A stretch of 64,000 nucleotides of DNA. It comes from Candidatus Binatia bacterium. GTDB lineage: Bacteria; Desulfobacterota; Binatia; Bin18. The notes beneath the pieces are model-generated. The model saw only the letters and a program-made list of their open reading frames with translations. It was not told the DNA's origin and did no database searches. Of the stretch, positions 7,491-53,670 are shown one piece after another. Both the position numbers and the translations under genes were made by a program. The DNA lies in assembly GCA_963664395.2 (NCBI GenBank), contig OY761159.2, positions 3,168,001 through 3,232,000 of the forward strand, read 5' to 3'. The stretch's first letter is position 1. Each line of letters opens with the position of its first letter.

Positions 7491-7997
7491 ATGAATCGTT
7501 TTCTGGGTTTCGTTGTTGGCTGTATTGCTCTGTTTGGACTTATGCCTATTCCTGCGCACGCGTGTACCTGTCTCACACCGCCGTCGCCAAGCGGAGGAGC
7601 GGAAGCCGTGGACGTCGTCTTTGTGGGGAAGGTGGCGGATATTGAGCATATTGAAGCCGATGGCTGGCTGTACGGTTCTTGGAAATCCATGCTGGGTGCT
7701 GAACACCTATACGAATTTGAGACGCTCCGAGTCTCTATGGATGTCAGCACTGCCATTAAAGGTACGGACAAATCTCAACTAACCCTCGAAACAGCAGCCA
7801 CAACAGAACTGTGTGGGGTATTGTTCCAGGAAGGGGAAGAATATCTGGTCTATGCCTTCAATGGTGTCGGTGAGACAGTGACGACAGATATGTGCACGCG
7901 AACAGCGACCTCAAAAAAGGCGGCTTCTGACATTAAAGCCCTGGTGAATAATGAAATCACCCCAATCTGCGAAGGCTGGACGTGCATTGACGACTAG
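7491..7997 (+). CDS. Secreted TIMP/NTR-like domain protein
   Basis: Signal peptide ending AHA then CTC; DVVFVGKV, CG..F..GEEYLVYA, CTRT. Confidence 0.7.
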   Translation: MNRFLGFVVGCIALFGLMPIPAHACTCLTPPSPSGGAEAVDVVFVGKVADIEHIEADGWLYGSWKSMLGAEHLYEFETLRVSMDVSTAIKGTDKSQLTLETAATTELCGVLFQEGEEYLVYAFNGVGETVTTDMCTRTATSKKAASDIKALVNNEITPICEGWTCIDD

Positions 7998-8017
7998 GCT
8001 CAGGACGAATGAGAGGC

Positions 8018-8436
8018 ATGCAACTGCACTATCCTGACTCGATTGACGATATTGAGCTGTCGAACTGGGACTTCTGGCGCAAAAGTCCTGAAGAACGAGA
8101 GGGCGCTTTTGCGCTGCTGCGCAAAGAGCGCCCGATTGCTTTCTTCGAGGAAGGCGAGACCAGCGTTCCGGTGCAGGGAGCGGGCTGGCGGTCTTCGAGG
8201 ACCCGTATGGCTTTGATGTCACTCGGAGCCCGAATGAGCATCTCGGATTTGGCGCGGGCGCCCACTTCTGCTTAGGGGCAAACCTGGCCCGGCGGGAGAT
8301 GGAAGTCATGTTTCGGGAACTCTTTCAGCGCCTTCCGAACCTCGAAATCACCGGAGAACCCGAGCGGCTGACGAATGATTTTATTCACGGGATTAAGCAT
8401 CTGCCGTGTCGTTTCTCGCCAGGACCGCTCATCTGA
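8018..8436 (+). pseudogene. Cytochrome P450 remnant with a large internal deletion
   Basis: N-terminal ~57 aa joined out of frame near 8188 to AVFEDPYGFDVTRSPNEHLGFGAGAHFCLGANLARRE (heme Cys motif); TGA at 8434-8436. Confidence 0.85.
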
Positions 8437-8491
8437 TACGCCCTTTTCTGACACACCCTTTCAGGAAACAAACCGGAACAGGAGGAAACAT

Positions 8492-9253
8492 ATGGCAGGA
8501 CTGACCGAGGGAAAAGTTGCACTCGTGACCGGAGCCGGGTCCGGTATTGGTCGGGCCACGGCGCTCGTCTTTGCCCGAGAAGGTGCCAAAGTCGTGGTGT
8601 CAGATATTGTGGTGGAAGGTGGTCAGGAAACCGTGCAGCAGATTGAAGCCGCGGGTGGAGAAGCCATTTTTGTCAAAGCCGATGTGTCGCAGGCCGCAGA
8701 TGTGGAGACGCTGATCGCAAAGACAGTTGAGACATATGGCCGCCTCGACTGCGCGTTCAATAATGCGGGCATCGAGGGGGGTATGAAGCTAACAATTGAC
8801 TGCACCAAGGAAGAGTTTGACCGGACGATTGCGGTCAATCTGACTGGCGTCTGGCTGTGCATGAAATACGAGATCCAACAGATGCTCAGCCAGGGCAGTG
8901 GGGCGATTGTGAATACCGCATCGGCTGCCGGTCTTGTTGGCTTTCCCGGCCTGCCTGACTATGTGGCGAGTAAACATGGTGTGGTCGGTCTGACCAAGAC
9001 CGCAGCGCTGGAATATGCCAAATCCGGCATTCGGGTGAACGCCGTCTGTCCGGGAGTGATTCAAACCCCCATGGTCGAACGGGGAGCACAACTGTCTCCG
9101 GGATTCGATGAACTCGCCCTGTCCATGGAGCCGGTTGGCCGCTTCGGGCAGCCCTCGGAAATTGGCGAAGCCGTAGTCTGGCTGTGTTCGGATGCGGCCT
9201 CGTTTGTAACCGGTATTCCGATGCAGGTGGACGGTGGCCTGGTGGCGCAGTAA
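8492..9253 (+). CDS. Short-chain dehydrogenase/reductase
   Basis: TGAGSGIG, NNAG, YVASK, VDGG; RBS AGGAGG. Confidence 0.95.
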   Translation: MAGLTEGKVALVTGAGSGIGRATALVFAREGAKVVVSDIVVEGGQETVQQIEAAGGEAIFVKADVSQAADVETLIAKTVETYGRLDCAFNNAGIEGGMKLTIDCTKEEFDRTIAVNLTGVWLCMKYEIQQMLSQGSGAIVNTASAAGLVGFPGLPDYVASKHGVVGLTKTAALEYAKSGIRVNAVCPGVIQTPMVERGAQLSPGFDELALSMEPVGRFGQPSEIGEAVVWLCSDAASFVTGIPMQVDGGLVAQ

Positions 9254-41191: not shown

Positions 41192-41707
41192 CTACGCGGC
41201 AGCGGCCTTGGCTGCATTCAGCGCCGCATCATAATCCGGCTCGTTGGCGATTTCCGATACGTATTCAACGTGCTTGAGCGTGCCGTCTTTTCCGACAACG
41301 AACACCGCGCGGGCGGTTACGCCAGCCAGCGGACCATCTGCGATCAACACGCCGTAGCCTTCGGCAAAGGCGTGGTCACGAAAATCCGACAGCGTTTTTA
41401 CCTGCTCCACGCCGGCCGCGCCGCACCAGCGCTTCTGAGCGAAGGGTAAATCCATACTCAAGGTCCAGATTTCAATCCCTTCGCCGAGCTTGGCGGCTTC
41501 TTCATTAAAGCGTCGTGTTTCCGTGTCACACACCGGCGTGTCAACCGAAGGGACAGAACTCAAAATTACGACTTTGCCCTGTGCCTCGCTGAGTTTGACG
41601 GACTGTAGATCGTTGTTCACTGCGGTGAAATCCGGGGCGGCCTGACCAACCGACACTTCTGATCCACCCAAGGTGAGAGGATTGCCGCGTAACGTAACTG
41701 ATGCCAT
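41192..41707 (-). CDS. tpx: Thiol peroxidase
   Basis: PSVDTPVC, SMDLPFAQKRWC, EPDY. Confidence 0.95.
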   Translation of the reverse strand: MASVTLRGNPLTLGGSEVSVGQAAPDFTAVNNDLQSVKLSEAQGKVVILSSVPSVDTPVCDTETRRFNEEAAKLGEGIEIWTLSMDLPFAQKRWCGAAGVEQVKTLSDFRDHAFAEGYGVLIADGPLAGVTARAVFVVGKDGTLKHVEYVSEIANEPDYDAALNAAKAAAA

Positions 41708-41870
41708 TTCGACCTCCTTGTCCTGCTCCAAAATAAAATTGTTGAATAACGAAAGCGGGCCGCATTCTATCCAGACACAGTTGAATTGCAAAGTGCCTGG
41801 GGATGACGCATGATCGGATCAAAGAGTTCCGGGGTTGGAGACTGTCCCCCTCAGCAAGGAGGTGCGTGCT

Positions 41871-42533
41871 ATGTGTGGCCGCTACAGCCTGACGGCAGAT
41901 GAAAAGCAGCTCAATGCTCGTTTTGTGGCGCGCTTCCTGCCCTCTACGCCGACCGCACGCTACAATATTGCGCCGACCCAGCCGGTATGGGCGCTGGTGC
42001 ATACGGAGGAACCCAGGATCGTGGCACTGCGTTGGGGGCTGATCCCGTCCTGGGCCAAGGACAAAGCCATTGGGAACCGGATGATTAACGCCCGCGCCGA
42101 AGGGATTGCAGAGAAGCCGAGTTTTCGCCGGGCGATTCGGAAGCGGCGCTGTCTGGTCCTGGCCGATGGTTTTTATGAGTGGCAAAAGACCGGGCCATCC
42201 AAACTGCCCTACTATATTCGACTGAAATCCGGTGAGCCGTTTGGGTTTGCCGGTTTATGGGAGCGCTGGTCCGCGCCGTCCGGCGAAACGATTCATTCGT
42301 GTACCATTATCACCACGACGCCCAACGAACTCATGGCCGACATCCATCACCGCATGCCGGTTATTGTCCCTCGTGAGGCCGAAGAGCGCTGGCTCGACCC
42401 AACAATAGAAGACCCGCAAAAAGTGCTGCCCCTCCTCCAGCCATACCCCGCCGGTGAGCTGGAAGCCTATGCGGTCTCAACTCTGGTGAATTCACCGCGC
42501 AATGATGTGGCCGCCTGTATTGAGCCAGGGTAG
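41871..42533 (+). CDS. SOS response-associated peptidase (SRAP/YedK)
   Basis: MCGRY start, INARAE, GFYEW, IH.RMP. Confidence 0.95.
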   Translation: MCGRYSLTADEKQLNARFVARFLPSTPTARYNIAPTQPVWALVHTEEPRIVALRWGLIPSWAKDKAIGNRMINARAEGIAEKPSFRRAIRKRRCLVLADGFYEWQKTGPSKLPYYIRLKSGEPFGFAGLWERWSAPSGETIHSCTIITTTPNELMADIHHRMPVIVPREAEERWLDPTIEDPQKVLPLLQPYPAGELEAYAVSTLVNSPRNDVAACIEPG

Positions 42534-42550
42534 CATACCCGAAACATGAA

Positions 42551-43096
42551 TTAGTCGCCCGTTTCCTTGGCGCCCGGCTCAAGATCAACTTGGGTCGCTG
42601 TGAGGAAACGGACAACCATATTATAGAACGCGGCATTCAAGCTGAGTTCGACGATCTGTTCCTCATTGAGAAAGGCGCGCAGCGCGTCAAAGGTCGTATC
42701 CGCAATCTGCACCTGCTCGGTCATCTCGGTTGCGTAGCGAATAACGGTGCGTTCGTGTTCGTTAAAAGCCGGGCTCGTCTCCCAGTCCGCAAGTTTTTCT
42801 ACTTGTTCAGGACTCACCCCAACTCGTTTGGCCAAGGCTTTATGGTGGGTATATTCATACTCGCAGTCGGTTAGCCTGCCGACCGTCATGATAGCGAGTT
42901 CCCGCAACCGAGGATCAAGCGTGGTCCGATTCCGCAGCCCATCGCTAAAGTACAGCATTCGACGCAGGAGCAACGGGCTGTGCGCCACGATCCGAAAGAT
43001 ATTGCCAATCGAGCCGCGTTGCTTGAGAAGATCATCAAAAATATCGCGCTCAAGCTCGGGCAGGTCATCTCGGTCCAGATAGGCTAAACGGGCCAT
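42551..43096 (-). CDS. Carboxymuconolactone decarboxylase/AhpD-like protein
   Basis: RLRELAI..V, CEYEYTHH. Confidence 0.85.
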   Translation of the reverse strand: MARLAYLDRDDLPELERDIFDDLLKQRGSIGNIFRIVAHSPLLLRRMLYFSDGLRNRTTLDPRLRELAIMTVGRLTDCEYEYTHHKALAKRVGVSPEQVEKLADWETSPAFNEHERTVIRYATEMTEQVQIADTTFDALRAFLNEEQIVELSLNAAFYNMVVRFLTATQVDLEPGAKETGD

Positions 43097-43118
43097 GCTG
43101 ACTTCCTTTCCAGTGTTA

Positions 43119-43928
43119 TTACTCTGAATTCTTCCCAGAGGTTTCTCCAAATTTGGGCGCACGCTTGTCCAGGAATGCCCGCATGCCTTCGCGGGCATCG
43201 TCGGACAAAAAGGCCGCTTTCTGAGCCCGGTACTCATAGGCCAGGGCTTGTTCGAGCGACGCGCTGGCCCCGAGATAGACGCCTTCTTTGATCCGAGCCA
43301 GAGTCTCTGCCGGACCCGTAGCCAGCGTCCGCGCAAAATTGAGCGTCTCTTCCCAAAAACTCTCAAGCGGATAGACCTGATTCAGCAGGCCCAAACGCAG
43401 AGCTTCTGCGGTTCTGATCCGGTCTCCGGTCATCATGAGTTCCATGGCCTTGGCCGTTCCAACCAGGCGGGACAAAAAGAAGAAGCCGCCCCAGTCGGGG
43501 ACCAGGCCAATCTTCACAAAGCTCTCGGAGAAGAGGGCCTTGTCCGAGCCAAGCCGAAAGTCGCAGCTTAATGCCAGGTTGGCGCCCGCGCCGGCCGCGG
43601 CGCCATTCACCGCCGCAATGATGGGCTGGGGCATACGCCGCAGCAACTGGACGACCTGACTGCCAAGGACCATGCGCTGTTCAATGACTTGGGTTGTACG
43701 GTCGTCCTGGAGCTTGGCCATACTGGCGATATCGCCTCCGGCGCAAAAGGCTCTCCCCGCACCAGTAATAATAACGCAGCGGACGCTCCGGTCGGTTGCA
43801 AACTGTTCGAGCTGCGCGAGGAGCTGACCGCGCATGGTGTCAGAGAAGGCGTTCATGACCTCGGGTCGATTCAGCGTCAGGATGCCAATATGATCGTTCA
43901 CTGTGGTGAGCACCTGGTTTTCGCTCAT
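43119..43928 (-). CDS. Enoyl-CoA hydratase/isomerase (PaaG-like)
   Basis: AFCAGGD, AAGAGANLAL.CD, IGLVPD.GG. Confidence 0.92.
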   Translation of the reverse strand: MSENQVLTTVNDHIGILTLNRPEVMNAFSDTMRGQLLAQLEQFATDRSVRCVIITGAGRAFCAGGDIASMAKLQDDRTTQVIEQRMVLGSQVVQLLRRMPQPIIAAVNGAAAGAGANLALSCDFRLGSDKALFSESFVKIGLVPDWGGFFFLSRLVGTAKAMELMMTGDRIRTAEALRLGLLNQVYPLESFWEETLNFARTLATGPAETLARIKEGVYLGASASLEQALAYEYRAQKAAFLSDDAREGMRAFLDKRAPKFGETSGKNSE

Positions 43929-43962
43929 GCTGTCCTCCGAGGTTTTCCGTTTACGCTCATCA

Positions 43963-45336
43963 TTAACTCAGCAGAGCCATGAGTTCGGTAATCTGCGCTG
44001 CTTCTAAGATTTCCAGACTATCAACAAGCTGAATACATCGCTGTGTTTGCTCTTCAGTCAGATGCATATTCAGGCAGTCTCGAATTTTGACCAGGTGTGC
44101 GTCTCGCTGTAGAAGCGGCAGGCCCCAAAATCCTTGCGGGCCAGTACACCGAGCAGTCAGGTGCCGGCCGTCTTGTAATTCTAGCGCAACATCGACCCAC
44201 ATTTTTTCCAAAACGCCAGGAATCGTCCGGTCCTGGGTCAGGCGAGTACGAGACATGAGACCTGCCAGGTCTGGCCGTGCGCAATAGTCATCCGAGAATG
44301 TCCGAATTGACACTGCGCCGTCGAGCAGGGCAGCGGCAACCGTATACTGAAAGCTGAATTTCCCGTCCAAACCGCTCTTACAAGCAGGCCGATCGACATA
44401 GGGCATGACTGGAGAGGTGATGTGGACGGCCTGAATTGAGTCGGGACTGTCAATCTGCTTATAGAGTTCCAGCGCAGCCAGGATGCCGAAATGCGTGCCG
44501 TACTGACACGGAAACATTTTCATCACAAAGCCTGGATCGACCATGCGATACGACTGAGCAGACCGAGCTAGGCTCAGCAATTCATCATAATTAAACTGCT
44601 CGCCAAAGAAGTGTTCGACATAGCCGTTCGGCGCTTCAAAAACCGTTGGGTTGCCGGTAAATCCGCGCGACGCCAATAAGGCCGCATCCAAACCGGATAA
44701 TGCGGCCCAGCCACAGTGGGTCGCCTTGGCCATGGTTCCGACATTGGCCATCAGCCCACCGGCACGAGATGCCGTAATACCAAGCGCATGTTGAAGCTGC
44801 TCTTGACTGAGTCCAAGCATATGCGCTGAGGCTACCGCCGCGCCCATGAGCCCGACGCTACTTGGTGGATGGACGGTAAACTCGCCAGGCACGTATTGAT
44901 GGGAGGCCAGCCGAATATGTCCCTGGAATTCACAGCCTTTGACAAAAGCTGTGATGATCTCTCGGCCCGTACTGTGTCGTTCTTCGGCCAAGGCTAAGAT
45001 GGCCGGCAGCGTTGGCGACGTTGCATGCGTGGGCGGACTCCACATAGGCTCATAGTCCAAGACATGCATGGAGATGCCGTTGGCATACGCCGCCAAAATA
45101 GGCGAAGTCCGAAAGCCATGGCCAATGACCGTTGCAATTTCTTTTCCGCCCTGACTGTTGACATGGGCGGCGGCAATGGTCGGCCCCGACTCTTTGGCCC
45201 CGGCCACTGCAACGGCAAGGCCGTCGAGGATGACGCGCTTTGCAACCGCAACAACCTCGTCCGAAAGCGACTCAAAGGTCATCCGGGTCAGGCTATGGCA
45301 CAAGGCTGCTGTTACTTGAGGAGGCGTCTTATCCAT
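43963..45336 (-). CDS. MmgE/PrpD family protein, cis-aconitate decarboxylase-like
   Basis: NG..MHVLDYE.MW.P.TH, HPPS.VG, MAN.GTMAK, K.FP, YVDRP, SFQY. Confidence 0.85.
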   Translation of the reverse strand: MDKTPPQVTAALCHSLTRMTFESLSDEVVAVAKRVILDGLAVAVAGAKESGPTIAAAHVNSQGGKEIATVIGHGFRTSPILAAYANGISMHVLDYEPMWSPPTHATSPTLPAILALAEERHSTGREIITAFVKGCEFQGHIRLASHQYVPGEFTVHPPSSVGLMGAAVASAHMLGLSQEQLQHALGITASRAGGLMANVGTMAKATHCGWAALSGLDAALLASRGFTGNPTVFEAPNGYVEHFFGEQFNYDELLSLARSAQSYRMVDPGFVMKMFPCQYGTHFGILAALELYKQIDSPDSIQAVHITSPVMPYVDRPACKSGLDGKFSFQYTVAAALLDGAVSIRTFSDDYCARPDLAGLMSRTRLTQDRTIPGVLEKMWVDVALELQDGRHLTARCTGPQGFWGLPLLQRDAHLVKIRDCLNMHLTEEQTQRCIQLVDSLEILEAAQITELMALLS

Positions 45337-45343
45337 GTTCCTG

Positions 45344-46303
45344 CTACTCAGATGGAAATTCTTTATCCGATTTGGGAATGGTCTCTTTCAGAACCGAATG
45401 TTTTCTCTCTTCGTCATGACCCTTCAGAAACTTTCGCTGCAAGGCTTGCACCTCAGCCAAGCCAATAATCTCTTCCCGTTCAGCAAAAGATGCCATGTCT
45501 TCTGCCATTGCTTCCGTATGTCCGTGTCTGCGGATTTCGGCTGCGGCGCGCTGCATGGCCCGCATAGCGGCGCGCTGCAGGTCTGACGGAACAATCATAA
45601 TGCGATATCCGAGTGCGGTGAGCTGCTCGGCTGGAACCAGGGGCGTTTTGCCACCCCAGAACATATTGATCAGAAGTGGAGCATGGACTTCCAGGGCTAT
45701 GCGTTCGATCTCTTCAAGCGATTGGGGCGCTTCCACAAAAATCACGTCCGCCCCTGCCTCGGCATAGGCGTTCCCCCGTTCAATCGCCGCATCCAACCCA
45801 AGCACGGCCCGGGCGTCTGTCCGGGCGATAATGACCAGATCGCCACCGGCCGCGGCCTGCGCGGCCTGAATTTTTTGGACCATCTCCGCGCTGCTGACCA
45901 CGTGTTTGCTTTCATAATGGCCGCAGCGTTTGGGTTCCATCTGGTCCTCAAGATGAAGCGCCGCCGCGCCAGAGCGCGCATACGCCCGAACCGTCCGCAT
46001 GACGTTAATGGCATTCCCATAGCCGGTGTCGGCGTCCACGATAAGCGGCAGAGTGGTGACAGCGCGAATCTCGTCCAGCCGCTTTTGCATTTCTGTGAAG
46101 GTGACCAAGCCAACGTCGGGATAACCCATGCTGCGCGCAATTGCGCCGCCGCTGATATACAAAGCGGCAACACCAGCGGCTTCAGCAATCTTGGCCGATA
46201 GCCCATCGTACACGCCCGGAGCCGTTAGCAGTTCCTCCTGGGCGAGCAGGGCTCTGAGCTCGGTCGGACCGGCTTGCAACACTGCGCTATTCTCCTCGTG
46301 CAT
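45344..46303 (-). CDS. Isocitrate lyase/PEP mutase family protein
   Basis: DADTGYG, LEDQ..PKRCGH, ARTDA. Confidence 0.92.
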   Translation of the reverse strand: MHEENSAVLQAGPTELRALLAQEELLTAPGVYDGLSAKIAEAAGVAALYISGGAIARSMGYPDVGLVTFTEMQKRLDEIRAVTTLPLIVDADTGYGNAINVMRTVRAYARSGAAALHLEDQMEPKRCGHYESKHVVSSAEMVQKIQAAQAAAGGDLVIIARTDARAVLGLDAAIERGNAYAEAGADVIFVEAPQSLEEIERIALEVHAPLLINMFWGGKTPLVPAEQLTALGYRIMIVPSDLQRAAMRAMQRAAAEIRRHGHTEAMAEDMASFAEREEIIGLAEVQALQRKFLKGHDEERKHSVLKETIPKSDKEFPSE

Positions 46304-47816
46304 ATCGCGCTGCGTGCGTACCGGCCAGCCGACCGAAGACCGCGCCGCGCATCAGCCCGGAGCCACCCGGATAGTTGAGATAGAAAAAGCCGCCGGTCAT
46401 TTCTCCGGTTGCGAACAGGCCGGGGATAGGCCGGTCTAAATGGTCGAGGACTGCCGCATCGGTATTAATCCGAATCCCACCAAAGGTGAAGGTGATGCCG
46501 AGAGAGACCGGATAGGCGTAAAAGGGCGGCTGATCGAGCCGGGTCGCCCAGTTGGTTTTTTCCGGTCGTAGACCCCGCGTGCGTTTGCCGTCTTTAATGT
46601 CAGGATTGAAAGATTCGTCCATCTTATCCTGGACGGCTGCGTTATAGGCTTCAAGCGTGGCCAGGAAAGCATCCCGGCGAAAATCCAGGGCCGCGTAGCG
46701 TTCCTCGATTTGATCCGCCAACTCGGTCAGACTGTCGGCGATGATGGGCGTGCCGGTATTATAGCGCGTCTCCAACAGCGAGACCGTCTGCTGGTCAAAG
46801 ACTTGAAAGATGGTTGCGCTGCGCTGCTGCAAAATGTCGCGACCCATTTTGGCGTAAGTGTACAAATTAAAATCCTCGCCCTCGTCAACAAACCGTTCGC
46901 CATCCAGGTTGACCATGACCGAGAACGGATAGGACAGCCGGTTGGTTTTGTCTGTAAGCCGCAGGTCGCCATAGGTCGGGGCGTCGGCATCAATCGGCGT
47001 TGCATGACAGCCCGCCCATTCGCCATAACTCTGGGCCCCAATCGACAGGGCCGCGCGCGTCATCTCGCCGGTGTTAAAACGGGTGCCTCTGACTTTGACC
47101 AAGCTCCAGCTCGGACCGAGATAGGCCGTGCGCATTTCCGGGTTCGCCTGGAATCCGCCGCTGGCCAGAACGAGTGCTTTGCAGTGGACTGTCCGGAGGC
47201 CGCTGGGATCACGTATGGCAATACCCGTCACGCGACCATCAGCCGCGGTGATAATGCGTTGGGCCTGGGTTTCGTACCAGACTGGAATGTCCGCTTCGGC
47301 CGCTAAGCGAAACAGAGTGCCGGACAGCAGGACGCCTTCGCCTTTGGAGCGGAGCGCACCCCCGCGGGCGAGTTTGATCTTCCGGGCCCCGGCAATGGTG
47401 ACGGGACCAACGGCCCGGTTAAACTCCCAGGCTACTCCCAGGTCGGCCATCCAGCGTACCGTGTCATACGAGCGCGTGATCAAGGTCTGAATCAGCGCGG
47501 GGTCGGCCCGTCCGCCGGTGACGCGGTCGATGTCCTGCTGAAAGTCCTCAGACGTATAGGGATCGACTGCCACATCACGCGGATCATCATTGTCTCGGAT
47601 AAGCGCAACCAAGTCGTCGATACCGTTATACGTGCAGCGGAACAGGCCGCCGGTAAAGCGTGTGTTGCCGCCGCGTAATTTTTGTGTTGCCTTTTCGAGA
47701 ACAACGACCCGGGCGCCCTCAGCCCGAGCGGCCAGAGCGGCCGTAAAGGCGGCGTTGCCCGCCCCGACAACGACCACATCAAACGTTTCTGGTGTCTGCT
47801 GAGCCGAATCTGCCAA
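46287..47816 (-). CDS. tcuA: FAD-dependent tricarballylate dehydrogenase TcuA-like
   Basis: GAGNAA, RGGNTRFT.G, VRGT.FNTG, GITFTFGG, NYPGGSGL..G.VFGR. Confidence 0.8.
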   Translation of the reverse strand: MADSAQQTPETFDVVVVGAGNAAFTAALAARAEGARVVVLEKATQKLRGGNTRFTGGLFRCTYNGIDDLVALIRDNDDPRDVAVDPYTSEDFQQDIDRVTGGRADPALIQTLITRSYDTVRWMADLGVAWEFNRAVGPVTIAGARKIKLARGGALRSKGEGVLLSGTLFRLAAEADIPVWYETQAQRIITAADGRVTGIAIRDPSGLRTVHCKALVLASGGFQANPEMRTAYLGPSWSLVKVRGTRFNTGEMTRAALSIGAQSYGEWAGCHATPIDADAPTYGDLRLTDKTNRLSYPFSVMVNLDGERFVDEGEDFNLYTYAKMGRDILQQRSATIFQVFDQQTVSLLETRYNTGTPIIADSLTELADQIEERYAALDFRRDAFLATLEAYNAAVQDKMDESFNPDIKDGKRTRGLRPEKTNWATRLDQPPFYAYPVSLGITFTFGGIRINTDAAVLDHLDRPIPGLFATGEMTGGFFYLNYPGGSGLMRGAVFGRLAGTHAARYARGE

Positions 47817-47975
47817 TGGCCTGTCCTCCCTATGGCAGCAATATAGCGTTTCTGTCCGTGGCGTGAATCCCCTTCGTTTTTGTCTCTTGACCGATGGAGT
47901 ACTCCTGACATAGACAGGAACAAAACAACCCGTGCTGTGCCGTTATTCGAGACACAGCCAAAGAGGAGGGATGGT

Positions 47976-48467
47976 ATGAACCCACGCGGAATGTCGCACG
48001 TTGCTCTATGCACCAAGGATTTCGATCGCTCCATGCATTTCTATCGGGATTTGCTTGGATTCCAGGTGGCCCAGGAGGGAACCACCGTTGAGGAGGGAGA
48101 GTATCAGCAGGGGATTTATAAGAAGAAAAACCAACAGGTGAAGTTTGCGATTCTGCGTCACGGCAAGAAGAAAGCCACACCGTACGGGCTGAATGAAGAT
48201 GCCCCGGTTATTGCCCTGCTCGCCCCGACGCAGAGCCAGCCGACTGGAAAGCCGATCCTGGTTGACCAGATTGGCATTTCCCACTTCGGGATATGGGTCA
48301 AGGGTTTGAACAAAGTTCACAAAGACTTAGTCAGCAAAGGCGTGGAATTTGCCGCTCCGCCGCACGTCTTGGCCAAGACCAAAGAAGGTACGATCCGCAG
48401 CGCCTTTGTCAAAGACCCGGATGGGATCATTATTCAGTTGGACGAAATGATCCCGGCCCGGAAGTAG
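47976..48467 (+). CDS. VOC/glyoxalase family protein
   Basis: SHVAL...D..RS..FY..LLG, SHFG..V, DPDG. Confidence 0.85.
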   Translation: MNPRGMSHVALCTKDFDRSMHFYRDLLGFQVAQEGTTVEEGEYQQGIYKKKNQQVKFAILRHGKKKATPYGLNEDAPVIALLAPTQSQPTGKPILVDQIGISHFGIWVKGLNKVHKDLVSKGVEFAAPPHVLAKTKEGTIRSAFVKDPDGIIIQLDEMIPARK

Positions 48468-48476
48468 ACTCTCGTC

Positions 48477-48541
48477 TCCCTCTCCCTTTGGGAGAGTCTA
48501 CTCCGGCTTCCCTCTCCCTCTGGGAGAGGGCCAGGGTGAGT
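48477..48541 (+). repeat. REP family B copy with a partial tandem duplicate
   Basis: TCCCTCTCCCTTTGGGAGAG...TCCCTCTCCCTCTGGGAGAGGGCCAGGGTGAG. Confidence 0.75.
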
Positions 48542-48544
48542 GTG

Positions 48545-49321
48545 CTAATGCCCAACCTCCGCCGGCCGTGGCTGGGCCTGTTTGGTTCGGATGTCCTGAG
48601 CCCTGGCCTGCATATCTCCAGCCTCATCCTTGCGGTGTAGCTTGTGTAGCAAATCGGCATATTTTTCGAGCAGGACGGCAACTGCCGGATGGTCCGTTCC
48701 GAGTTTCTCCTCACGGATCTCGAGCGCCCGTTGAAAGAGCGGCTCAGCATCGGCAGGCTTGCCTTGAGCAATGGCCAGCTCAGCCAATCCGCTCAGGCTG
48801 GTCGAGACAGCGGGATGAGTCGGTCCAAGTGCCTGCTGTCGTATTGTCAGCGACCGCTGAAAATAGGACTCCGCTTCAGCGTAGCGTTCCTGGCTCATAT
48901 AGACGGCGGCTAAGTTGTTCAGACAATTGGTAATTCTGTAATGAGTAGGACCCACGAAGGCTTCGGCGATTTTCAGCGCCCGCCGCAGGAAAGTCTCTGC
49001 TTCATCGTATCGGCCGAGTTCTCGATACAGAGAGGCCAAGTTGTTCAGACTCTGCGCCACCCACGGATGGTGGGGACCATAGTGCGCTTCTCGGATAGAC
49101 AATGCCCGCTCATAATACCCGGTGGCTTCAGATCGTTTGCCTTGATTATGGGATAAACTTCCCAAATTATTCAGGACAACGGCGACGCGTGAGTCCTGTG
49201 GGCCAAATTTTTCGGCCTCTTGGAGTGCCTTGCGGAACTGTTGCTCGGCTTCGACATAATGCCCTTTTTGATACAGCCGTGCGCCCGCTTCGTTTGCCGT
49301 CTCCCAGTTAGTGTCACTCAT
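48545..49321 (-). CDS. Tetratricopeptide repeat protein (42-aa kinesin-light-chain type)
   Basis: Repeated LNNLA..Y...G.Y.EAE....RAL.I.E...G..HP. Confidence 0.9.
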   Translation of the reverse strand: MSDTNWETANEAGARLYQKGHYVEAEQQFRKALQEAEKFGPQDSRVAVVLNNLGSLSHNQGKRSEATGYYERALSIREAHYGPHHPWVAQSLNNLASLYRELGRYDEAETFLRRALKIAEAFVGPTHYRITNCLNNLAAVYMSQERYAEAESYFQRSLTIRQQALGPTHPAVSTSLSGLAELAIAQGKPADAEPLFQRALEIREEKLGTDHPAVAVLLEKYADLLHKLHRKDEAGDMQARAQDIRTKQAQPRPAEVGH

Positions 49322-49409
49322 AGCACCCCCTTTTGCACAGCGGTCTGAACGCAACAACTGCCCATGTGTAGCAGCCCTTGTGAAAAACTGCGAGGCATTG
49401 AGGGGGAGC

Positions 49410-50744
49410 CTACGCCGCTTCCCGAATTACCGGCATGCCCTCGGATGGAGCGAACGTAATACTCCGCCGGACAACACGCACAGTATGTCCCGGCACTGGT
49501 CGGAGTGAGACCCGAGACAGTATCTGGGCGAGGACGATTTTCATCTCATATGTGGCAAAGGCTGCACCCAGACAGTGACGGACTCCTCCGCCAAAGGGGA
49601 AAAAGGTGTAGGGATCAATTCGTTTTCCAACAAACCGGTCGGGGTTAAACGTCTCAGGCTCGGGCCACAATTCCGGTCGCCTGTGGGTGAGGTAAATACA
49701 CGGCGCGGCCACACAATCCGCAGGTATTTCATACGCCCCGATCTGGGTTGGCTGTTCGAGATACCGAACCACGGCCGGGACGATGGGATTGAGCCGGGCC
49801 GTCTCTTTGATTGTCGCGTCAAGGTACTCAAGCTCAGAAACGTGCTCTGCCTGTATGGGGCCGTCACCGATCACGCGCTGTCGCTCGGCTCGGACTTTTT
49901 CGAGAACGGCCGGGTTTTGTAACAAGCGGTGAACAACCCAAGACAGCGAGGTTGCCGTGGTCTCGTGCCCGGCCAGCAGCATCGTGATCATCTCATCCCG
50001 CAGTTCTTGATCGCTCATGGGCCGGCCATCTTCGTCTCGGGCTTCGATGAGCATGGCCATGATATCGGTGCGCCCGTTTTGTGTGGCAGCTTTACGTTGG
50101 GCAATCTGTTCGTACAAGACTGTATCGATTTCACGGCTGAGTTTACCCATGCGTTGCCACGAGGTGAGTGGTCCCAGATTGACTTGCAGCCAACGGATTA
50201 AAAGGAGAGGGCTACTCCCGACGAGTCTGAGAAACTCAATCAGCAAGGATCGCAGTTTCTGGAGTAGCGAACCTTCGTCCACGCCAAAGACGGTCCGCAG
50301 AATGATATCTAGCGTGATAGCCTGCATGCGTTCGTGAATGGGGAAGGGCTGTTCAATCGGCCAGGTGTCAATCGACCGATCGGCAATCTCCCGCATGATG
50401 TCGCCATAGAGACGCATGCGTTCGCCATGAAACGGTGGCATGAGCAATTTGCGCTCCCGTTTGTGGCGCGCGCCATCAAGTAGCAACACTGAGTTCTCAC
50501 CCAAAATCGGTTTGAGAACCACATTCGCCCGACCCGCCAGGGCATGCTCAGGTGATGCGGTAAAGATCTGTTTAATGGCAGCCGGGTCGCTGAAAAACGC
50601 AATCGGCGGCGTATTGAGCCAACGCATGGTGAAACACTCACCATATTCCTGGGCATATTTCTGCATGATGGGAATGGGTCTGCGGACCCAATTAAGGGTT
50701 TGGAATAGCCGGGGGAGCTTCGGACCGGGAGGGAGGGAACTCAT
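49410..50744 (-). CDS. Cytochrome P450
   Basis: AGHETT, ETAR, PFGGGVRHCLG. Confidence 0.95.
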   Translation of the reverse strand: MSSLPPGPKLPRLFQTLNWVRRPIPIMQKYAQEYGECFTMRWLNTPPIAFFSDPAAIKQIFTASPEHALAGRANVVLKPILGENSVLLLDGARHKRERKLLMPPFHGERMRLYGDIMREIADRSIDTWPIEQPFPIHERMQAITLDIILRTVFGVDEGSLLQKLRSLLIEFLRLVGSSPLLLIRWLQVNLGPLTSWQRMGKLSREIDTVLYEQIAQRKAATQNGRTDIMAMLIEARDEDGRPMSDQELRDEMITMLLAGHETTATSLSWVVHRLLQNPAVLEKVRAERQRVIGDGPIQAEHVSELEYLDATIKETARLNPIVPAVVRYLEQPTQIGAYEIPADCVAAPCIYLTHRRPELWPEPETFNPDRFVGKRIDPYTFFPFGGGVRHCLGAAFATYEMKIVLAQILSRVSLRPVPGHTVRVVRRSITFAPSEGMPVIREAA

Positions 50745-50882: not shown

Positions 50883-51089
50883 GTGCAACTGCTCCGTACC
50901 GAAAAACAAAAAGATAATCTCGCAAAGTTCTTTTGGGATATGGCAAAAGTCTCTTTTGCCGTCCTCGTATTGACGCCCTTGGCCAAACCGGAGGCCGGAG
51001 AGGTGATTTCTTTTTCGATAGGAACTCTTTCTGGCGGGGTTCTCTTATCGGTTGGCTACCTTCTCGACGGAATGGAGGTTCAGACATGA
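50883..51089 (+). CDS. Small two-TM membrane protein (DUF6722-like)
   Basis: NLAKFFWDMAK followed by two hydrophobic helices. Confidence 0.6.
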   Translation: MQLLRTEKQKDNLAKFFWDMAKVSFAVLVLTPLAKPEAGEVISFSIGTLSGGVLLSVGYLLDGMEVQT

Positions 51090-51193
51090 GCCCGGCACAG
51101 GCACTCACCGCCGTCTTTTTAGTTTTCCTCGTAATGGGGCTGATCGGTTTGTTTATCGTTTTTACCGACAGAGGACTGAAGTGGAAGAAATAA
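51086..51193 (+). CDS. 35-aa single-TM protein
   Basis: GGAGG RBS, ATGA overlap; MSPAQALTAVFLVFLVMGLIGLFIVFTDRGLKWKK. Confidence 0.55.
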   Translation: MSPAQALTAVFLVFLVMGLIGLFIVFTDRGLKWKK

Positions 51194-51327
51194 GGTTCCT
51201 CTAGGAGAGGGCAATCTAACTCTGTTTGATTCTCCTTTGCACGTTTCTCCCAAATCCTCTTCGTACGAGCTATCAATACAATGTTTCTCTTGACGTTCCC
51301 TCCCTGATATTGTAATCCCTCCCTTCT

Positions 51328-51410
51328 GGGCTTGGACGGATAATATGTGAGCATGAGTTCGTGCTCGTACTTTGCGGAGATTAGACTCTTCCCCTATCCG
51401 ATCCAAGCCC
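51328..51410 (+). ncRNA. Candidate retron msr-msd ncRNA
   Basis: Terminal inverted repeats GGGCTTGGACGGATA (51328-51342) and TATCCGATCCAAGCCC (51395-51410, one bulge); internal hairpin 51349-51366; ends 27 nt before the RT ATG. Confidence 0.65.
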
Positions 51411-51437
51411 TTTCTTTGTCGCCTGGAGCAAAAAGGT

Positions 51438-52382
51438 ATGGTGACGATTCAATTTAGCGCAATAAGAAACATAGAAGATTTGGCAAAGAACCTCGGTACC
51501 TCTGTCGTTGGCATTAGACGTTTCACTGATACTGCCGATCAAGGTCAGTTTTATGAAAGAAAGATGATTCCCAAAAAAGGTAGAAAAAGGCGAGGTCAGT
51601 TCAGAACTGTCTACAAGGTACGGCAGGATTTGAGAGTCATCCAGAAAACTATCTTAACGGCAATAACCACACAGGTTACATTCCCTGAATATGTTCAAGG
51701 GTTCGTCCATAGACGCTCAATCATTACGAATGCCCGTCTACACCTATCCCAAAAGTTACTTTTACATGCAGATATAAAAGATTTTTTTGAATCAATAGAA
51801 ACCCCTCAAGTTGCCGAGTCGTTTGAATCTCTAGGATGCCAGAAGGAGATAGCATTTGTCTTCGCTAAGCTCTGTACTTTGAACGGATTCTTACTTCAAG
51901 GCTCCAGCGCTAGTCCGGCCCTTGCGAATCTAGTCTGTAAATACCTTGATATTGACCTCAAAACGCTCGCTGATACTCATAAATGCAGATTTAGTAGATA
52001 TGGGGATGACATCACCTTTTCAGGAGATTCTCTTCCGCCTTCGGAACGCGTTGAGGCTTTATTAAAAAGGTACGGTTATGAACTACGAGATGGAAAGTGC
52101 CGCATCCAAAGACGTGGCCGGAGTCAATATGTGACTGGCTTGACAACTTTTGACGACGAAAGGCCAAGAATTTCTCGCAGAATAAAGAAACGCCTGAGAT
52201 TAGAATTGTATTATGTTGAACGCTTTGGCCTTACTAATCATCTTGCACGAGTCCATTGGAGGAAGTCTCTCCGCGCAAAAATAAGACAAATGAATGGCTG
52301 GATTAGCTTCCTTTACTCCGTTGAACCGGATAAAGCGGCGGCGTTTGATCGACAATGGAAGAGGACCCTCTCAAAAGAGTGA
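51438..52382 (+). CDS. Retron-type reverse transcriptase
   Basis: Region X NARLH (NAxxH), DIKDFF, QGS..SP, RYGDD, region Y VTG; 314 aa with no maturase or endonuclease tail. Confidence 0.9.
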   Translation: MVTIQFSAIRNIEDLAKNLGTSVVGIRRFTDTADQGQFYERKMIPKKGRKRRGQFRTVYKVRQDLRVIQKTILTAITTQVTFPEYVQGFVHRRSIITNARLHLSQKLLLHADIKDFFESIETPQVAESFESLGCQKEIAFVFAKLCTLNGFLLQGSSASPALANLVCKYLDIDLKTLADTHKCRFSRYGDDITFSGDSLPPSERVEALLKRYGYELRDGKCRIQRRGRSQYVTGLTTFDDERPRISRRIKKRLRLELYYVERFGLTNHLARVHWRKSLRAKIRQMNGWISFLYSVEPDKAAAFDRQWKRTLSKE

Positions 52383-52391
52383 TGGTAGGGC

Positions 52392-52426
52392 AGCAAGGGA
52401 GGCTAAGTAGTTATTCTTCCCTTGCT
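52392..52426. terminator. Hairpin between the convergent RT and effector genes
   Basis: AGCAAGGGAGG...CTTCCCTTGCT. Confidence 0.5.
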
Positions 52427-52433
52427 AATTCCG

Positions 52434-53670
52434 TTAAGGAAGTGGATTCTCCCTTGTAAAGAATTCGTCTGTGGTGAAATTATGGACTACCCTTACCTTG
52501 TTCCGAATCTTTTCAAAATCTAGTCGTTCTGGAGTCCCCGCCGTTTCCAGATACTTTTGGACGATTACACAGGAATAATGAGCAACTGCCAGACCGTATT
52601 CAGGACCGTTTGTTAGCTCGACAGTCGGCTGCTCCTGAAACCCTCTGTTGTCAATGTTTGTAATGGCCTGGACGTGGGAATTAACAATTTCCTGTCTGTT
52701 TTCAATATGTGGCTGGTGAAGCTGACTCAGCCAGATATTTATACGCCGCGCCTTATTCGCTCTAAGCCTCTCGAACATGAGTCTCCCGAATAAGCACTCA
52801 TATGCATCTTGGCCTGTTTGTGAAGTAAAAGAGCCTTTCTCTGCATAGCAGACATATGCTTCAAAAATTAAGCTACTTAAAGTTTCGATAAATTTTACGC
52901 GGACGTTTGGGTCGTCTTGAGAATAATTGAACTCTCCTGTTTGTAACCTATTCACTAGGGATCAACCGGATGTATGGATCGTGTAGAAGGTCCTGCCGCA
53001 TTTCTTCTACTCTCTGCCTAATCAGCTCTGCGTCTTCAGCGACAACACATTCAACAAGAGCTAGGTTGTCTGGTTTCTCTCCATTAAAACCCGCCTCGCT
53101 GATGAATATATCAACGGATTCTTCCTTCTTTATTTGAGAAGGATTCGGCACTAATAGGTGCTTGACTGAAGAAGTATCCCCTCGCTGGAGTTGAGGTTGA
53201 TCTAGGGGCGCCTGATTGACTGGGGGATTTTTGAATGCTTTTTGAATATCTCTTGCGAGCTTGACAAAGAGGGCTTCCCGCTCCCCCTCTTTCATATCGA
53301 TAAGAGGCTTTGCTTCAGGGTTAGCCACTTGAAACTGATTGATAATTGGGGTTTCAAGGAAAGGTTTCACTATGACGGGAAGAGTGAATAGTCCCCTGTC
53401 TTCTGCGGCTTTAAGAAGAGGAGGGAGTTCGTCTGTCGCTATGAAATCAGAGGCGAGAAAATCAGCGCTAAGCAGGAGCACGGCTGCTTGAGACGATTCA
53501 ATCGCTTGTCTAATTTCTTCTCACCAGCGGTCTCCAGTCTTAATTCGCGTATCATCCCACAGGTCTATAGTTCCACCTCGTTCAAGCGGCTTGAGATGGA
53601 CAAGGAGCCGCTCAAGCCACTCCTTGTCTTCGTGGCTATAGCTAATGAATATTTTTGGTCGGGTTGCCAT
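52434..53670 (-). pseudogene. TIR + DUF3800-like fusion interrupted by an in-frame TGA and a frameshift
   Basis: ATG 53670 MATRPKIFISYSHEDKEWLE...LWDDTRIKTGDRW*(TGA 53523-53521)EEIRQAIESSQAAVLLLSADFLASDFIATDELP; frame change at about 52948-52955. Confidence 0.75.

Follow-up and report, generated by a model that had tools for sequence, protein, structure and literature searches.

What does a bacterial relative of the animal immune enzyme ACOD1/IRG1 do in an operon that also encodes a TcuA-like flavoprotein and a carbon-carbon (C-C) lyase? The question is raised by five genes on the minus strand of a 64,000-nucleotide (nt) stretch of a Candidatus Binatia genome (assembly GCA_963664395.2, contig OY761159.2, positions 3,168,001 to 3,232,000), which we call the window and whose own numbering is used below. 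An earlier note on this DNA, made without database searches, had read the third gene product, here called P0001, as a cis-aconitate decarboxylase (CAD) like ACOD1, and the operon as an undescribed tricarboxylate route, possibly to itaconate. Based on structure rankings, two phylogenetic trees, and a comparison of 75 related loci, we conclude that P0001, as far as its sequence can tell, is a member of the ACOD1 branch of the MmgE/PrpD family, beside rather than inside the animal clade. The operon probably serves the breakdown of a substituted succinate or tricarboxylate, a task on which the flavoprotein and the ACOD1-like enzyme would work together. More tentatively, we favor a methylcitrate-cycle-like module, independent of coenzyme A (CoA), for a C2-substituted succinate or tricarboxylate, in which P0001 might act as a hydro-lyase. 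The parts of the locus are as follows (aa, amino acids; ORF, open reading frame).

46287..47816, minus strand: TcuA-family flavin adenine dinucleotide (FAD) flavoprotein, 509 aa, first operon gene (FAD_binding_2, 142 bits; NF006130)
45344..46303, minus strand: PrpB-like C-C lyase of the PEP-mutase/isocitrate-lyase superfamily, 319 aa (PEP_mutase, 187 bits; KRCGH loop)
43963..45336, minus strand: ACOD1-clade MmgE/PrpD protein P0001, 457 aa (Pfam families, PDB ranking, Foldseek, trees)
43119..43928, minus strand: crotonase-fold enoyl-CoA hydratase/isomerase, 269 aa (ECH_1, 216 bits)
42551..43096, minus strand: CMD/AhpD-fold protein, 181 aa from the most likely start, ATG at 43096 (Pfam CMD, 58.9 bits)
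47817..47975, no strand: divergent intergenic region of 159 bp between the operon and the VOC gene (one sigma-70-like site)
47976..48467, plus strand: divergent VOC/glyoxalase-fold protein, 163 aa from ATG at 47976 (Pfam Glyoxalase, 56.3 bits, for the longer ORF)

P0001 matches the N-terminal (PF03972, 200.5 bits) and C-terminal (PF19305, 80.9 bits) Pfam families of the MmgE/PrpD superfamily, each with a cut-off of 32.1 bits. In a HMMER comparison with the PDB, its best solved relative is mouse CAD (192.6 bits, E = 1.1e-55), with human CAD beside it (188 bits, E = 2.5e-54); the second-best solved relative after CAD is iminodisuccinate (IDS) epimerase (149 bits, E = 2e-42), and the B. subtilis "IRG1" scores 128 bits (E = 5e-36). 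Against the PrpD equivalog families, P0001 remains below each cut-off (NF006943, 62.6 versus 575 bits; TIGR02330, 49.3 versus 458; NF042438, 37.9 versus 950). The CAD ranking is specific and not general to bacterial MmgE/PrpD proteins, because three other paralogs rank IDS epimerase first: the second copy in the same genome (141 bits versus 102 for CAD) and two paralogs of the proteobacterial locus L059 (225 versus 158 and 116 versus 104). In contrast, the relative of P0001 that adjoins a TcuA-like gene in L059 scores higher with CAD (217 bits) than with IDS epimerase (167 bits). An AlphaFold2 model of P0001, built from 21 sequences with a mean predicted local distance difference test score (pLDDT) of 77.6, was used for fold search alone, because a region that holds part of the active site is unreliable, with pLDDT below 50 over residues 48 to 95 and 100 to 103, which include the HVLDYEPMWSPPTH motif. 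Foldseek places mouse and human CAD on top (E = 1.6e-23, template modeling score 0.76 to 0.81), followed by B. subtilis IRG1, IDS epimerase, and PrpD (19% identity). Every pair that the earlier note had aligned by eye with human CAD is found in the HMMER alignment and the translation, namely, HVLDYEPMWSPPTH/HSMDFDDTWHPATH, HPPSSVG/HPPSVVG, MANVGTMAK/MANAATQTK, KMFP/KRFP, YVDRP/YVNRP, SFQY, and GFWGLP/GHWRKP. The names that JGI assigned to homologues, among the matches listed, include "aconitate decarboxylase" for 27/120 and "2-methylcitrate dehydratase PrpD" for 7/120.

These rankings speak for the reading in which P0001 would be a true CAD: the TcuA-like flavoprotein would convert tricarballylate to cis-aconitate and P0001 would decarboxylate this to itaconate or a close analogue, which could be released or be an intermediate toward pyruvate and acetyl-CoA. 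Although CAD is the top hit in both searches, the ranking is specific against the three paralog controls, and the TcuA-adjacent proteobacterial relative is also CAD-first, we consider this reading somewhat unlikely when all of the evidence below is weighed.

The phylogeny places P0001 with the animal enzymes. A HMMER search with P0001 of 1.84 billion cluster representatives returned 15,781 relatives at E ≤ 0.001 and 1,803 at E ≤ 1e-30. The best 150 of the 15,781 representatives score from 459.6 down to 199.8 bits against P0001; at least 150 clusters (at the 50% identity level) thus score about 200 bits or more, above the mammalian CADs (188 to 193 bits). These best 150 include two animal proteins, one from Branchiostoma and one from Octopus, that bear the name cis-aconitate decarboxylase(-like). 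Against mouse CAD, that of Branchiostoma (P0277) scores 448 bits; it is 36% identical to P0001 (161/452, E = 1e-76). A FastTree phylogeny was built from 151 rows, made up of P0001, 6 Binatia and 6 proteobacterial relatives, 10 paralogs, 4 animal proteins, and 124 full-length representatives. In it, the 26-row clade of P0001 (support 99) is sister to a 10-row clade of animals and six prokaryotic representatives (joint support 94). A quick IQ-TREE run under LG+C20 used 70 of the 151 rows, namely, a 42-row clade, 12 and 8 random further representatives, and 8 paralogs. It recovers a 47-row clade (SH-like approximate likelihood ratio test [SH-aLRT] 99) that joins the animal rows to 43 bacterial rows (support 94), among which is the 25-row clade of P0001 (support 99), while the IDS-epimerase-like paralogs fall outside. 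The two trees differ in the sister of the animals, with six prokaryotic representatives within the animal clade in FastTree and all 43 bacterial rows as the sister in IQ-TREE; the animal stem is long (1.14). In both trees, ACOD1 is represented by amphioxus and octopus, and IDS epimerase by paralogs that have it as best PDB match; neither tree has a row for the human or mouse CAD, A. terreus CadA, methylsuccinate isomerase (Msi), PrpD, or IDS epimerase as such. Together, the trees and the PDB ranking group P0001 with animal ACOD1, and not with PrpD or IDS epimerase, a grouping that the earlier note had named as refuting its reading.

The 36% identity to the amphioxus protein and the well-supported clade shared with animal ACOD1 are further points in favor of a decarboxylase. 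Moreover, a preprint (10.1101/2022.06.17.496652) describes metazoan IRG1 as probably acquired from prokaryotes, from a source clade that it leaves unknown, and finds alphaproteobacterial sequences in the clade nearest metazoan IRG1 (this and the other papers cited are quoted for the passages that we consulted). If so, the activity could be ancestral.

The active site gives a less favorable picture. In human CAD, alanine mutants are inactive at eight residues, Asp93, Thr97, His103, His159, Lys207, Lys272, His277, and Tyr318, and activity is lost or much lowered in the natural variants Thr97Met and His277Tyr (Chen 2019, PMC6789909). P0001 keeps six of these eight (Asp94, His104, His156, Lys204, Lys273, and Tyr313), and has Met98 in place of Thr97 and Gln278 in place of His277 (signature HDMHHKKQY). 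The statement in the earlier note that the active-site Asp, His, His, Lys, Lys, and Tyr are kept is therefore right as far as it goes, but two further validated residues are replaced. Among 21 relatives of P0001, Met98 is invariant and Gln278 is at least 90% conserved. A census covered P0001 and 126 representatives, 127 full-length rows in all. Between 123 and 127 of these have the residues of the Asp/His/His/Lys/Lys core, position 98 is most often Met (26), Thr (25), or Val (25), position 278 is Cys in 70, Gln in 22, and His in 6, position 313 is Val in 21, Ile in 20, and Tyr in 17, and the complete animal signature occurs in the two animal rows only. The carboxylate-binding residues are described as conserved family-wide, and the known activities of the family, which are dehydratase, decarboxylase, IDS epimerase, and methylsuccinate isomerase, all proceed via C2 proton transfer (Gonner 2025, PMC12290011). 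Since the core is nearly universal in the family, its conservation carries no information on decarboxylation, and the kept residues would indicate an intact family active site rather than prove a decarboxylase. The retention of six of eight residues, Tyr318 included, can be counted for CAD activity; the conserved Met98 and Gln278, at positions where substitution impairs the human enzyme, count against it and argue for a pocket in P0001 that differs from that of human CAD. Even so, Met98 and Gln278 are compatible with CAD activity, because fungal CAD differs at four of the eight human residues and works without them (PMC6789909).

The flavoprotein is the other partner in any tricarballylate route. 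Its score against the NF006130 "TcuA" family is 501.9 bits, above the cut-off of 369, and against TIGR02485 it is 249.7 bits, below the cut-off of 372.55. Identity to TcuA of Salmonella pHCM1, where the operon order is tcuR-tcuA-tcuB-MFS, is 35% by blastp and 33.8% by tblastn. The flavoprotein is 44 to 47% identical to homologues of Deinococcus, Paracoccus, and Bradyrhizobium, all of which bear the NCBI name "TcuA"; tcuB is present in none of the three annotated loci inspected. The contexts of these genes differ: the Deinococcus gene adjoins TctABC; that of Paracoccus versutus pTAV3 (L099) adjoins phosphosulfolactate synthase and a sulfonate-type (SsuA-type) ABC transporter, with MmgE/PrpD and PrpF genes nearby; and that of Bradyrhizobium guangxiense p53363 (L100) adjoins ETF genes, a CoA transferase, and a CoA-ester lyase. 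There are thus hints that part of the flavoprotein group may act on sulfonated or other non-tricarballylate acids. The L099 and L100 loci also carry chromate-transporter-like pairs and a putative sulfate exporter. Among solved structures, the flavoprotein is nearest to flavocytochrome c3 fumarate reductase (122 bits) and urocanate reductase (106 bits). The earlier note had seen no tcuB in the window, and this absence extends to the host genome (5.04 Mb, 95.9% complete), where the best TIGR02484 score is 25.5 bits against a cut-off of 246.6 and a tblastn search with Salmonella TcuB gives no match at E = 1e-3; none of 14 control genomes has a protein over the TIGR02484 cut-off either. The host genome has a second TcuA-like gene (L103, G000:C1:4343000-4360000, gene 7828-9243), whose neighbors encode VOC, family III CoA-transferase, crotonase, sodium:dicarboxylate symporter, and 3-hydroxyisobutyrate-dehydrogenase-like proteins. 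This locus is a second flavoprotein/VOC/crotonase set in the genome.

Characterized TcuA converts tricarballylate to cis-aconitate, which is a point in favor of the decarboxylase reading. However, with 34 to 35% identity to the Salmonella enzyme, tcuB-less relatives, and differing contexts, that function, which the earlier note had taken as established, does not simply transfer to the flavoprotein of the operon. Cis-aconitate formation by this protein is a lead that may be worth following rather than an assigned function.

The gene neighborhood was compared in 75 loci with P0001 relatives from a collection of species-representative genomes, in which a neighbor was counted if it lay within 6 kb of the ACOD1-like gene and ORFs in high-GC loci were chosen with a filter on GC content at third codon positions. 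Relatives with at least 78% identity to P0001 are genus-level, those with 60 to 70% are from other Binatia-type metagenome-assembled genomes, and those below 55% mostly carry alpha- or betaproteobacterial labels. The counts in these three bands are as follows.

TcuA-like flavoprotein: 16/16 at ≥78%; 9/16 at 60 to 70% (4/7 with full flanks); 8/43 at <55% (5/23 with full flanks)
PrpB-like lyase: 16/16; 5/16; 0/43
CMD protein: 12/16; 10/16; 1/43
Crotonase: 15/16; 2/16; 0/43
VOC protein: 16/16; 2/16; 0/43

The gene run is thus conserved in the genus, and a TcuA-like gene is linked to the ACOD1-like gene in more than one phylum. The PrpB-like gene lies between the flavoprotein and ACOD1-like genes in all 16 genus loci and in 5/16 of the more distant Binatia loci, and the crotonase is a peripheral member of the operon. 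The flanks of the other Binatia loci share no common transporter or regulator, and their flanking genes vary by lineage. Of 24 other genomes of the genus, 17 have the ACOD1-like gene, and among those that lack it are five with 97 to 100% completeness, so the operon is accessory.

This variability is what would be expected if the five genes were not one pathway at all but neighbors by inherited synteny in Binatia, for example, with the flavoprotein as an oxidase that makes hydrogen peroxide and an AhpD-like protein as its partner. The set does vary outside the genus, with the crotonase, lyase, and CMD genes each missing from part of the 60 to 70% loci, and most proteobacterial loci lack all of them. 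We nevertheless regard this explanation as very unlikely, given that the genes overlap or lie 7 to 34 nt apart on one strand, that three classes or phyla show the TcuA-like link amid otherwise different neighbors, and that a lyase gene and an ACOD1-like gene occur together again in Paracoccus.

In Proteobacteria, the neighbors are often further MmgE/PrpD paralogs (a CAD-like tandem copy or an IDS-epimerase-like one) and a YjgF-like protein, PrpF also occurs (L058, L084), and the loci carry ABC, TRAP, TctC, and MFS transporters; regulators in related loci are of the GntR/FCD type. Eight loci (L049, L059, L047, L051, L055, L069, L072, and L081) have two CAD-like paralogs in tandem, both with about 50% identity to P0001; many such loci have an IDS-epimerase-like paralog as well, and a YjgF-like gene is found in both that were scanned with Pfam (L049 and L059). 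Two of the carriers are cultured strains. In Paraburkholderia sp. PREW-6R, the gene of a P0001 relative (43% identical) and a TcuA-like gene (45%) are about 5 kb apart, and the latter abuts an IDS-like paralog. Plasmid pPAN3 of Paracoccus pantotrophus DSM 11072 carries a PrpB-like-PrpF-ACOD1-like run adjoining an ABC transporter. Here the start of the ACOD1-like gene overlaps the stop of PrpF, and the best matches of its product are members of the P0001 clade; within about 25 kb there are three TcuA-like genes, another MmgE/PrpD gene, a TRAP transporter, and a GntR regulator. TcuA-like genes also lie directly beside IDS-epimerase-like paralogs (L096, L102), which argues that the pairing is not specific to a cis-aconitate step and so counts against the decarboxylase reading. 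That PrpF, of the aconitate isomerase family, and the tricarboxylate receptor TctC occur in related loci is, in contrast, in its favor.

The pairing of TcuA-like genes with CAD-like and IDS-epimerase-like paralogs alike would suit a different role for P0001, by analogy with Msi. P0001 could be an epimerase or isomerase that acts on a chiral 2-substituted succinate, or that catalyzes the 1,3-proton shift between itaconate and citraconate or mesaconate, and could in this way prepare the substrate for a stereospecific TcuA-like dehydrogenase. Msi genes are reported always to adjoin a dehydrogenase gene, and all family members to share C2 protonation or deprotonation via an enolate (Gonner 2025, PMC12290011); the tandem CAD-like duplicates in Proteobacteria would fit enzymes for different stereoisomers. 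However, P0001 is closer to CAD than to IDS epimerase, tricarballylate is achiral, and a hydratase between dehydrogenase and lyase would still be missing. The second catalytic base of such enzymes is Tyr145 in IDS epimerase and Tyr148 in Msi. We judge such a role to be unlikely.

The lyase scores 302.4 bits against TIGR02317 (prpB), below the cut-off of 354.4, and its KRCGH fits the K-(K/R)-C-G-H motif with Cys, which we take to be the catalytic loop of the lyase branch of the PEP-mutase/isocitrate lyase (ICL) superfamily. Its nearest PDB entry is 4iqd (213 bits), in the alignment to which KRCGH is visible, followed by methylisocitrate lyases (185 to 195), petal death protein (184), and 2,3-dimethylmalate lyase (175). 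The genome has four PrpB-like paralogs, this one included, of which 0/4 exceed the TIGR02317 cut-off. If P0001 made itaconate, the PrpB-like lyase would have no substrate downstream of it, and itaconate inhibits ICL-family lyases. In addition, the Pfam and NCBIfam scan of the operon shows no CoA transferase, other itaconate-activating enzyme, or citramalyl-CoA lyase, and cis-aconitate could enter the tricarboxylic acid cycle directly, so that a decarboxylating detour needs a rationale. Of the tricarboxylate route to itaconate proposed in the earlier note, then, the ACOD1-like identity holds up, while the role of the lyase, the missing CoA activation, the transfer of TcuA function, and the two replaced residues weaken the rest.

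We favor a hydro-lyase because it is the only reading that gives the co-operonic lyase a substrate. The lyase needs a hydroxy acid, and in the PrpB-like/PrpF/ACOD1-like set only the MmgE/PrpD protein is a candidate to make or use one. PrpD, the MmgE/PrpD family's founding member, is a dehydratase. The recurrent pairing of MmgE/PrpD and TcuA-family genes also argues that both proteins act on the same class of compounds, C2-substituted succinate-type 1,4-dicarboxylates, the kind of substrate known for either family. In the proposed module, the substrate would be of the tricarballylate, aconitate, or methylsuccinate/citraconate type, and the core steps would use free acids. As its family suggests, the flavoprotein would introduce a double bond into the saturated acid, giving an enedioate of the cis-aconitate or citraconate type, and pass electrons to some acceptor. 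In the second and most tentative step, P0001 would hold the 1,4-dicarboxylate via Asp94, His104, His156, Lys204, and Lys273 and, as a hydro-lyase using enolate chemistry, interconvert the enedioate with a hydroxy acid of the 2-alkylmalate or isocitrate type. The KRCGH loop of the lyase would then, judging by family and motif, cleave the hydroxy acid to a carboxylic acid and a 2-oxo acid, for which pyruvate, glyoxylate, and oxaloacetate are candidates. Example routes would be tricarballylate or trans-aconitate to cis-aconitate, on to a citrate- or isocitrate-type acid, and then cleavage, or methylsuccinate or itaconate to citraconate, citramalate, and finally pyruvate and acetate. The crotonase and the CMD protein would be lineage-specific additions. 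Human CAD binds the enedioate citraconate in its active-site pocket (Runge 2026, PMC13495696), so a pocket of the ACOD1 clade can hold such a substrate, and PrpB, PrpD, and PrpF are the three families of the methylcitrate cycle (PMC5690661). The transporters (TctC, TRAP, ABC, and MFS), GntR/FCD regulators, and PrpF at related loci would provide a catabolic context.

Several observations weigh against the hydro-lyase scheme. The nearest characterized relative of P0001 is a decarboxylase, PrpD is distant in the PDB ranking (≤44 bits, E = 1.8e-10), and we know of no hydro-lyase in the ACOD1 or IDS-epimerase part of the family. The unreliable part of the P0001 model (residues 48 to 103) includes part of the active site. 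At 60 to 70% identity, 11/16 Binatia loci (3/7 with full flanks) have no lyase gene near the ACOD1-like gene, none of the 43 proteobacterial loci of the collection has one near it, and the MmgE/PrpD paralogs and YjgF-like neighbors may point to epimerization or imine intermediates instead. The scheme does not account for the electron acceptor of the flavoprotein, and it has no place for the CMD protein or for the crotonase, a CoA-ester enzyme. The crotonase has no NCBIfam equivalog over its cut-off, and its nearest PDB entries are generic crotonases. The CMD protein scores 54.4 bits against TIGR01926 (cut-off, 81.8) and 21 bits against TIGR00778 (cut-off, 27.8), and its PDB matches are weak ones to AhpD-like proteins only. 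Its translation has one Cys (DCEYEYTHH) and no CxxC, presumably the redox motif of AhpD-type alkylhydroperoxidases. The probability left after the four readings belongs to other chemistry.

Comparison with known systems shows what is shared and what is particular to this operon. Animal ACOD1/IRG1 (PDB 6R6U, 6R6T, 7BR9, and 12UX/12VD) has the two-domain MmgE/PrpD fold in common with P0001, shares its clade in both trees, and has the six residues whose equivalents are kept (Asp93, His103, His159, Lys207, Lys272, and Tyr318), but it has Thr97 and His277 where the bacterial clade has conserved Met and Gln. It is a lone immune-induced gene, whereas the P0001 gene shares an operon with those of a flavoprotein and a putative C-C lyase. 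The methylcitrate cycle resembles the operon in its combination of a PrpB-like lyase (KRCGH) with an MmgE/PrpD protein, joined by PrpF in Paracoccus and other proteobacterial loci, and in the logic proposed here of enedioate to hydroxy acid to C-C cleavage with free acids. It differs in that the operon has no PrpC, P0001 is not PrpD, the lyase is under the prpB cut-off, and there is an additional TcuA-like flavoprotein. Salmonella TcuRABC shares an FAD flavoprotein of NF006130 that presumably desaturates a succinate-type acid, but the flavoprotein here is only 34 to 35% identical to it and is not accompanied by TcuB, TcuC, or TcuR. In the Pseudomonas/Cupriavidus itaconate cluster, Msi and methylsuccinyl-CoA dehydrogenase likewise couple an MmgE/PrpD protein to a flavin dehydrogenase for a substituted succinate, and Msi shares the carboxylate-binding residues with P0001. 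Msi is, however, IDS-epimerase-like (de Witt 2023), whereas P0001 is CAD-like. The dehydrogenase of that cluster is an acyl-CoA dehydrogenase acting on a CoA ester, whereas the one here is of the TcuA family, and Ict, Ich, and Ccl are absent here. IDS epimerase (PDB 2HP0/2HP3) has the same fold and the conserved His/Asp/His/His/Lys/Lys set, but it scores below CAD against P0001, and the IDS-epimerase-like paralogs lie outside the P0001 clade.

The layout of the operon and its cover by contigs from RNA libraries are consistent with a functional unit. All five minus-strand genes described in the earlier note, in a tight run from 42551 to 47816 and with the KRCGH lyase among them, are present in the ORF list and in the Pfam and NCBIfam matches. 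The first four ORFs are listed with the coordinates given above; the fifth is listed as 42551-43366, and we moved its start to the ATG at 43096 because, with the longer ORF, 248 nt would be shared with the crotonase gene. With this start, the spacing in operon order is a 17-nt overlap, of the lyase gene start with the TcuA-like gene end, then 7 nt between the lyase and P0001 genes, and then gaps of 34 and 22 nt. The flavoprotein gene starts with TTG behind a AGGGAGGA ribosome-binding site, and the ATG of the VOC gene is preceded by a AGAGGAGGG ribosome-binding site; whether the VOC gene belongs to the system is uncertain. The sigma-70-like site between the two (minus strand, 47867-47840) is a promoter candidate and only a lead, as the promoter scan found 4 sites versus 2.8 expected from shuffled sequence, and the terminator scan was likewise not above expectation.

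Metatranscriptome contigs from three studies, 95 to 99% alike, reach into each of the five genes and span each of the four junctions (X16, 42953-43152, 43656-44107, 44795-45734, and 46181-46444; X17, 46235-46472; X19, 46235-46406). Since these are assembled contigs of related strains, their depth cannot rank genes, gaps carry no meaning, and DNA carry-over is possible. The cover is compatible with transcription of related strains in nature and does not imply a single transcript. An X16 contig has a 3-nt insertion behind position 45365, near the 3' end of the lyase gene, that is probably strain variation, and one matching DNA source is labeled as a sponge metagenome.

Further features surround the operon. 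The VOC and TPR genes converge on two GC-rich hairpins at 48470-48540. Contig depth over the second hairpin (48508-48540) rises to 576 and 1968 in two RNA libraries, where it has many different flanks, and its 23-nt core has 17 copies in the genome at ≤2 mismatches, which suggests a repeated palindromic element of the REP-like kind. Upstream of the divergent VOC gene, and syntenic in the genus, are genes for a cytochrome P450 (277 bits) and a TPR protein (48545-50744, minus strand). A P450 and a VOC protein beside an ACOD1-like gene recall cyp3/rdo1 of Ustilago and RdoPA of Pseudomonas, an idea taken from gene families alone; Cyp3/Rdo1 and RdoPA act on itaconate derivatives (de Witt 2023), and RdoPA has 127 aa versus 163 for the VOC protein. 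A reverse transcriptase gene (51372-52382, plus strand) has retron-type NCBIfam matches, both below cut-off (Retron St85 family, 167.7 bits with a cut-off of 235; TIR-domain anti-phage reverse transcriptase, 170.4 bits with a cut-off of 600), and lies in a low-GC stretch at about 51000-53000 (GC 0.44 to 0.45 versus about 0.57) that may be a defense islet adjoining the conserved block. On the other side, genes for an SRAP-domain protein (41835-42533, plus strand) and the thiol peroxidase Tpx (41192-41791, minus strand; NF001808, 221.9 bits with a cut-off of 123) flank the operon and are syntenic in most genus-level loci.

In the literature that we searched, which included few subscription journals and no supplements, we found no description of this gene set or of an assayed bacterial member of the ACOD1 branch. 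Nor did that search find a paper joining TcuA or tricarballylate with the PrpD/MmgE family or aconitate decarboxylase, or itaconate with a bacterial cis-aconitate decarboxylase. Itaconate, aconitate, methylcitrate, and PrpD go unmentioned in the main text of the Binatota genome paper (PMC8262859), and the consulted passages of the preprint 10.1101/2022.06.17.496652 contain no bacterial enzyme assay. The structure paper on B. subtilis "IRG1" concerns a clade different from that of P0001, and one for which no activity has been shown according to Gonner 2025 (PMC12290011).

ACOD1/IRG1 is a much-studied immune enzyme for which a prokaryotic origin has been proposed and left uncharacterized. The present comparison supplies a genomic context for its bacterial kin, in which TcuA-family flavoproteins recur with no tcuB beside them at the loci examined, joined in some lineages by PrpB-like lyases and PrpF isomerases. 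It also identifies cultured carriers for tests of function, Paracoccus pantotrophus DSM 11072 with pPAN3 and Paraburkholderia sp. PREW-6R, and it advises caution with the automatic names "aconitate decarboxylase" and "PrpD" on P0001 homologues and "TcuA" at tcuB-less loci. If the decarboxylase reading is true, bacteria make itaconate by an undescribed route. It is rather doubtful that the bacterial clade of P0001 decarboxylates cis-aconitate (or alkyl-aconitate) as animal ACOD1 does; that would be the first bacterial itaconate route, from tricarballylate via a TcuB-less TcuA-type enzyme, and a living model of the system from which animals obtained theirs. If P0001 is instead a hydro-lyase or an isomerase, the family would gain a new activity within a CoA-independent pathway for branched di- or tricarboxylates, and cis-aconitate decarboxylation would be an animal innovation.

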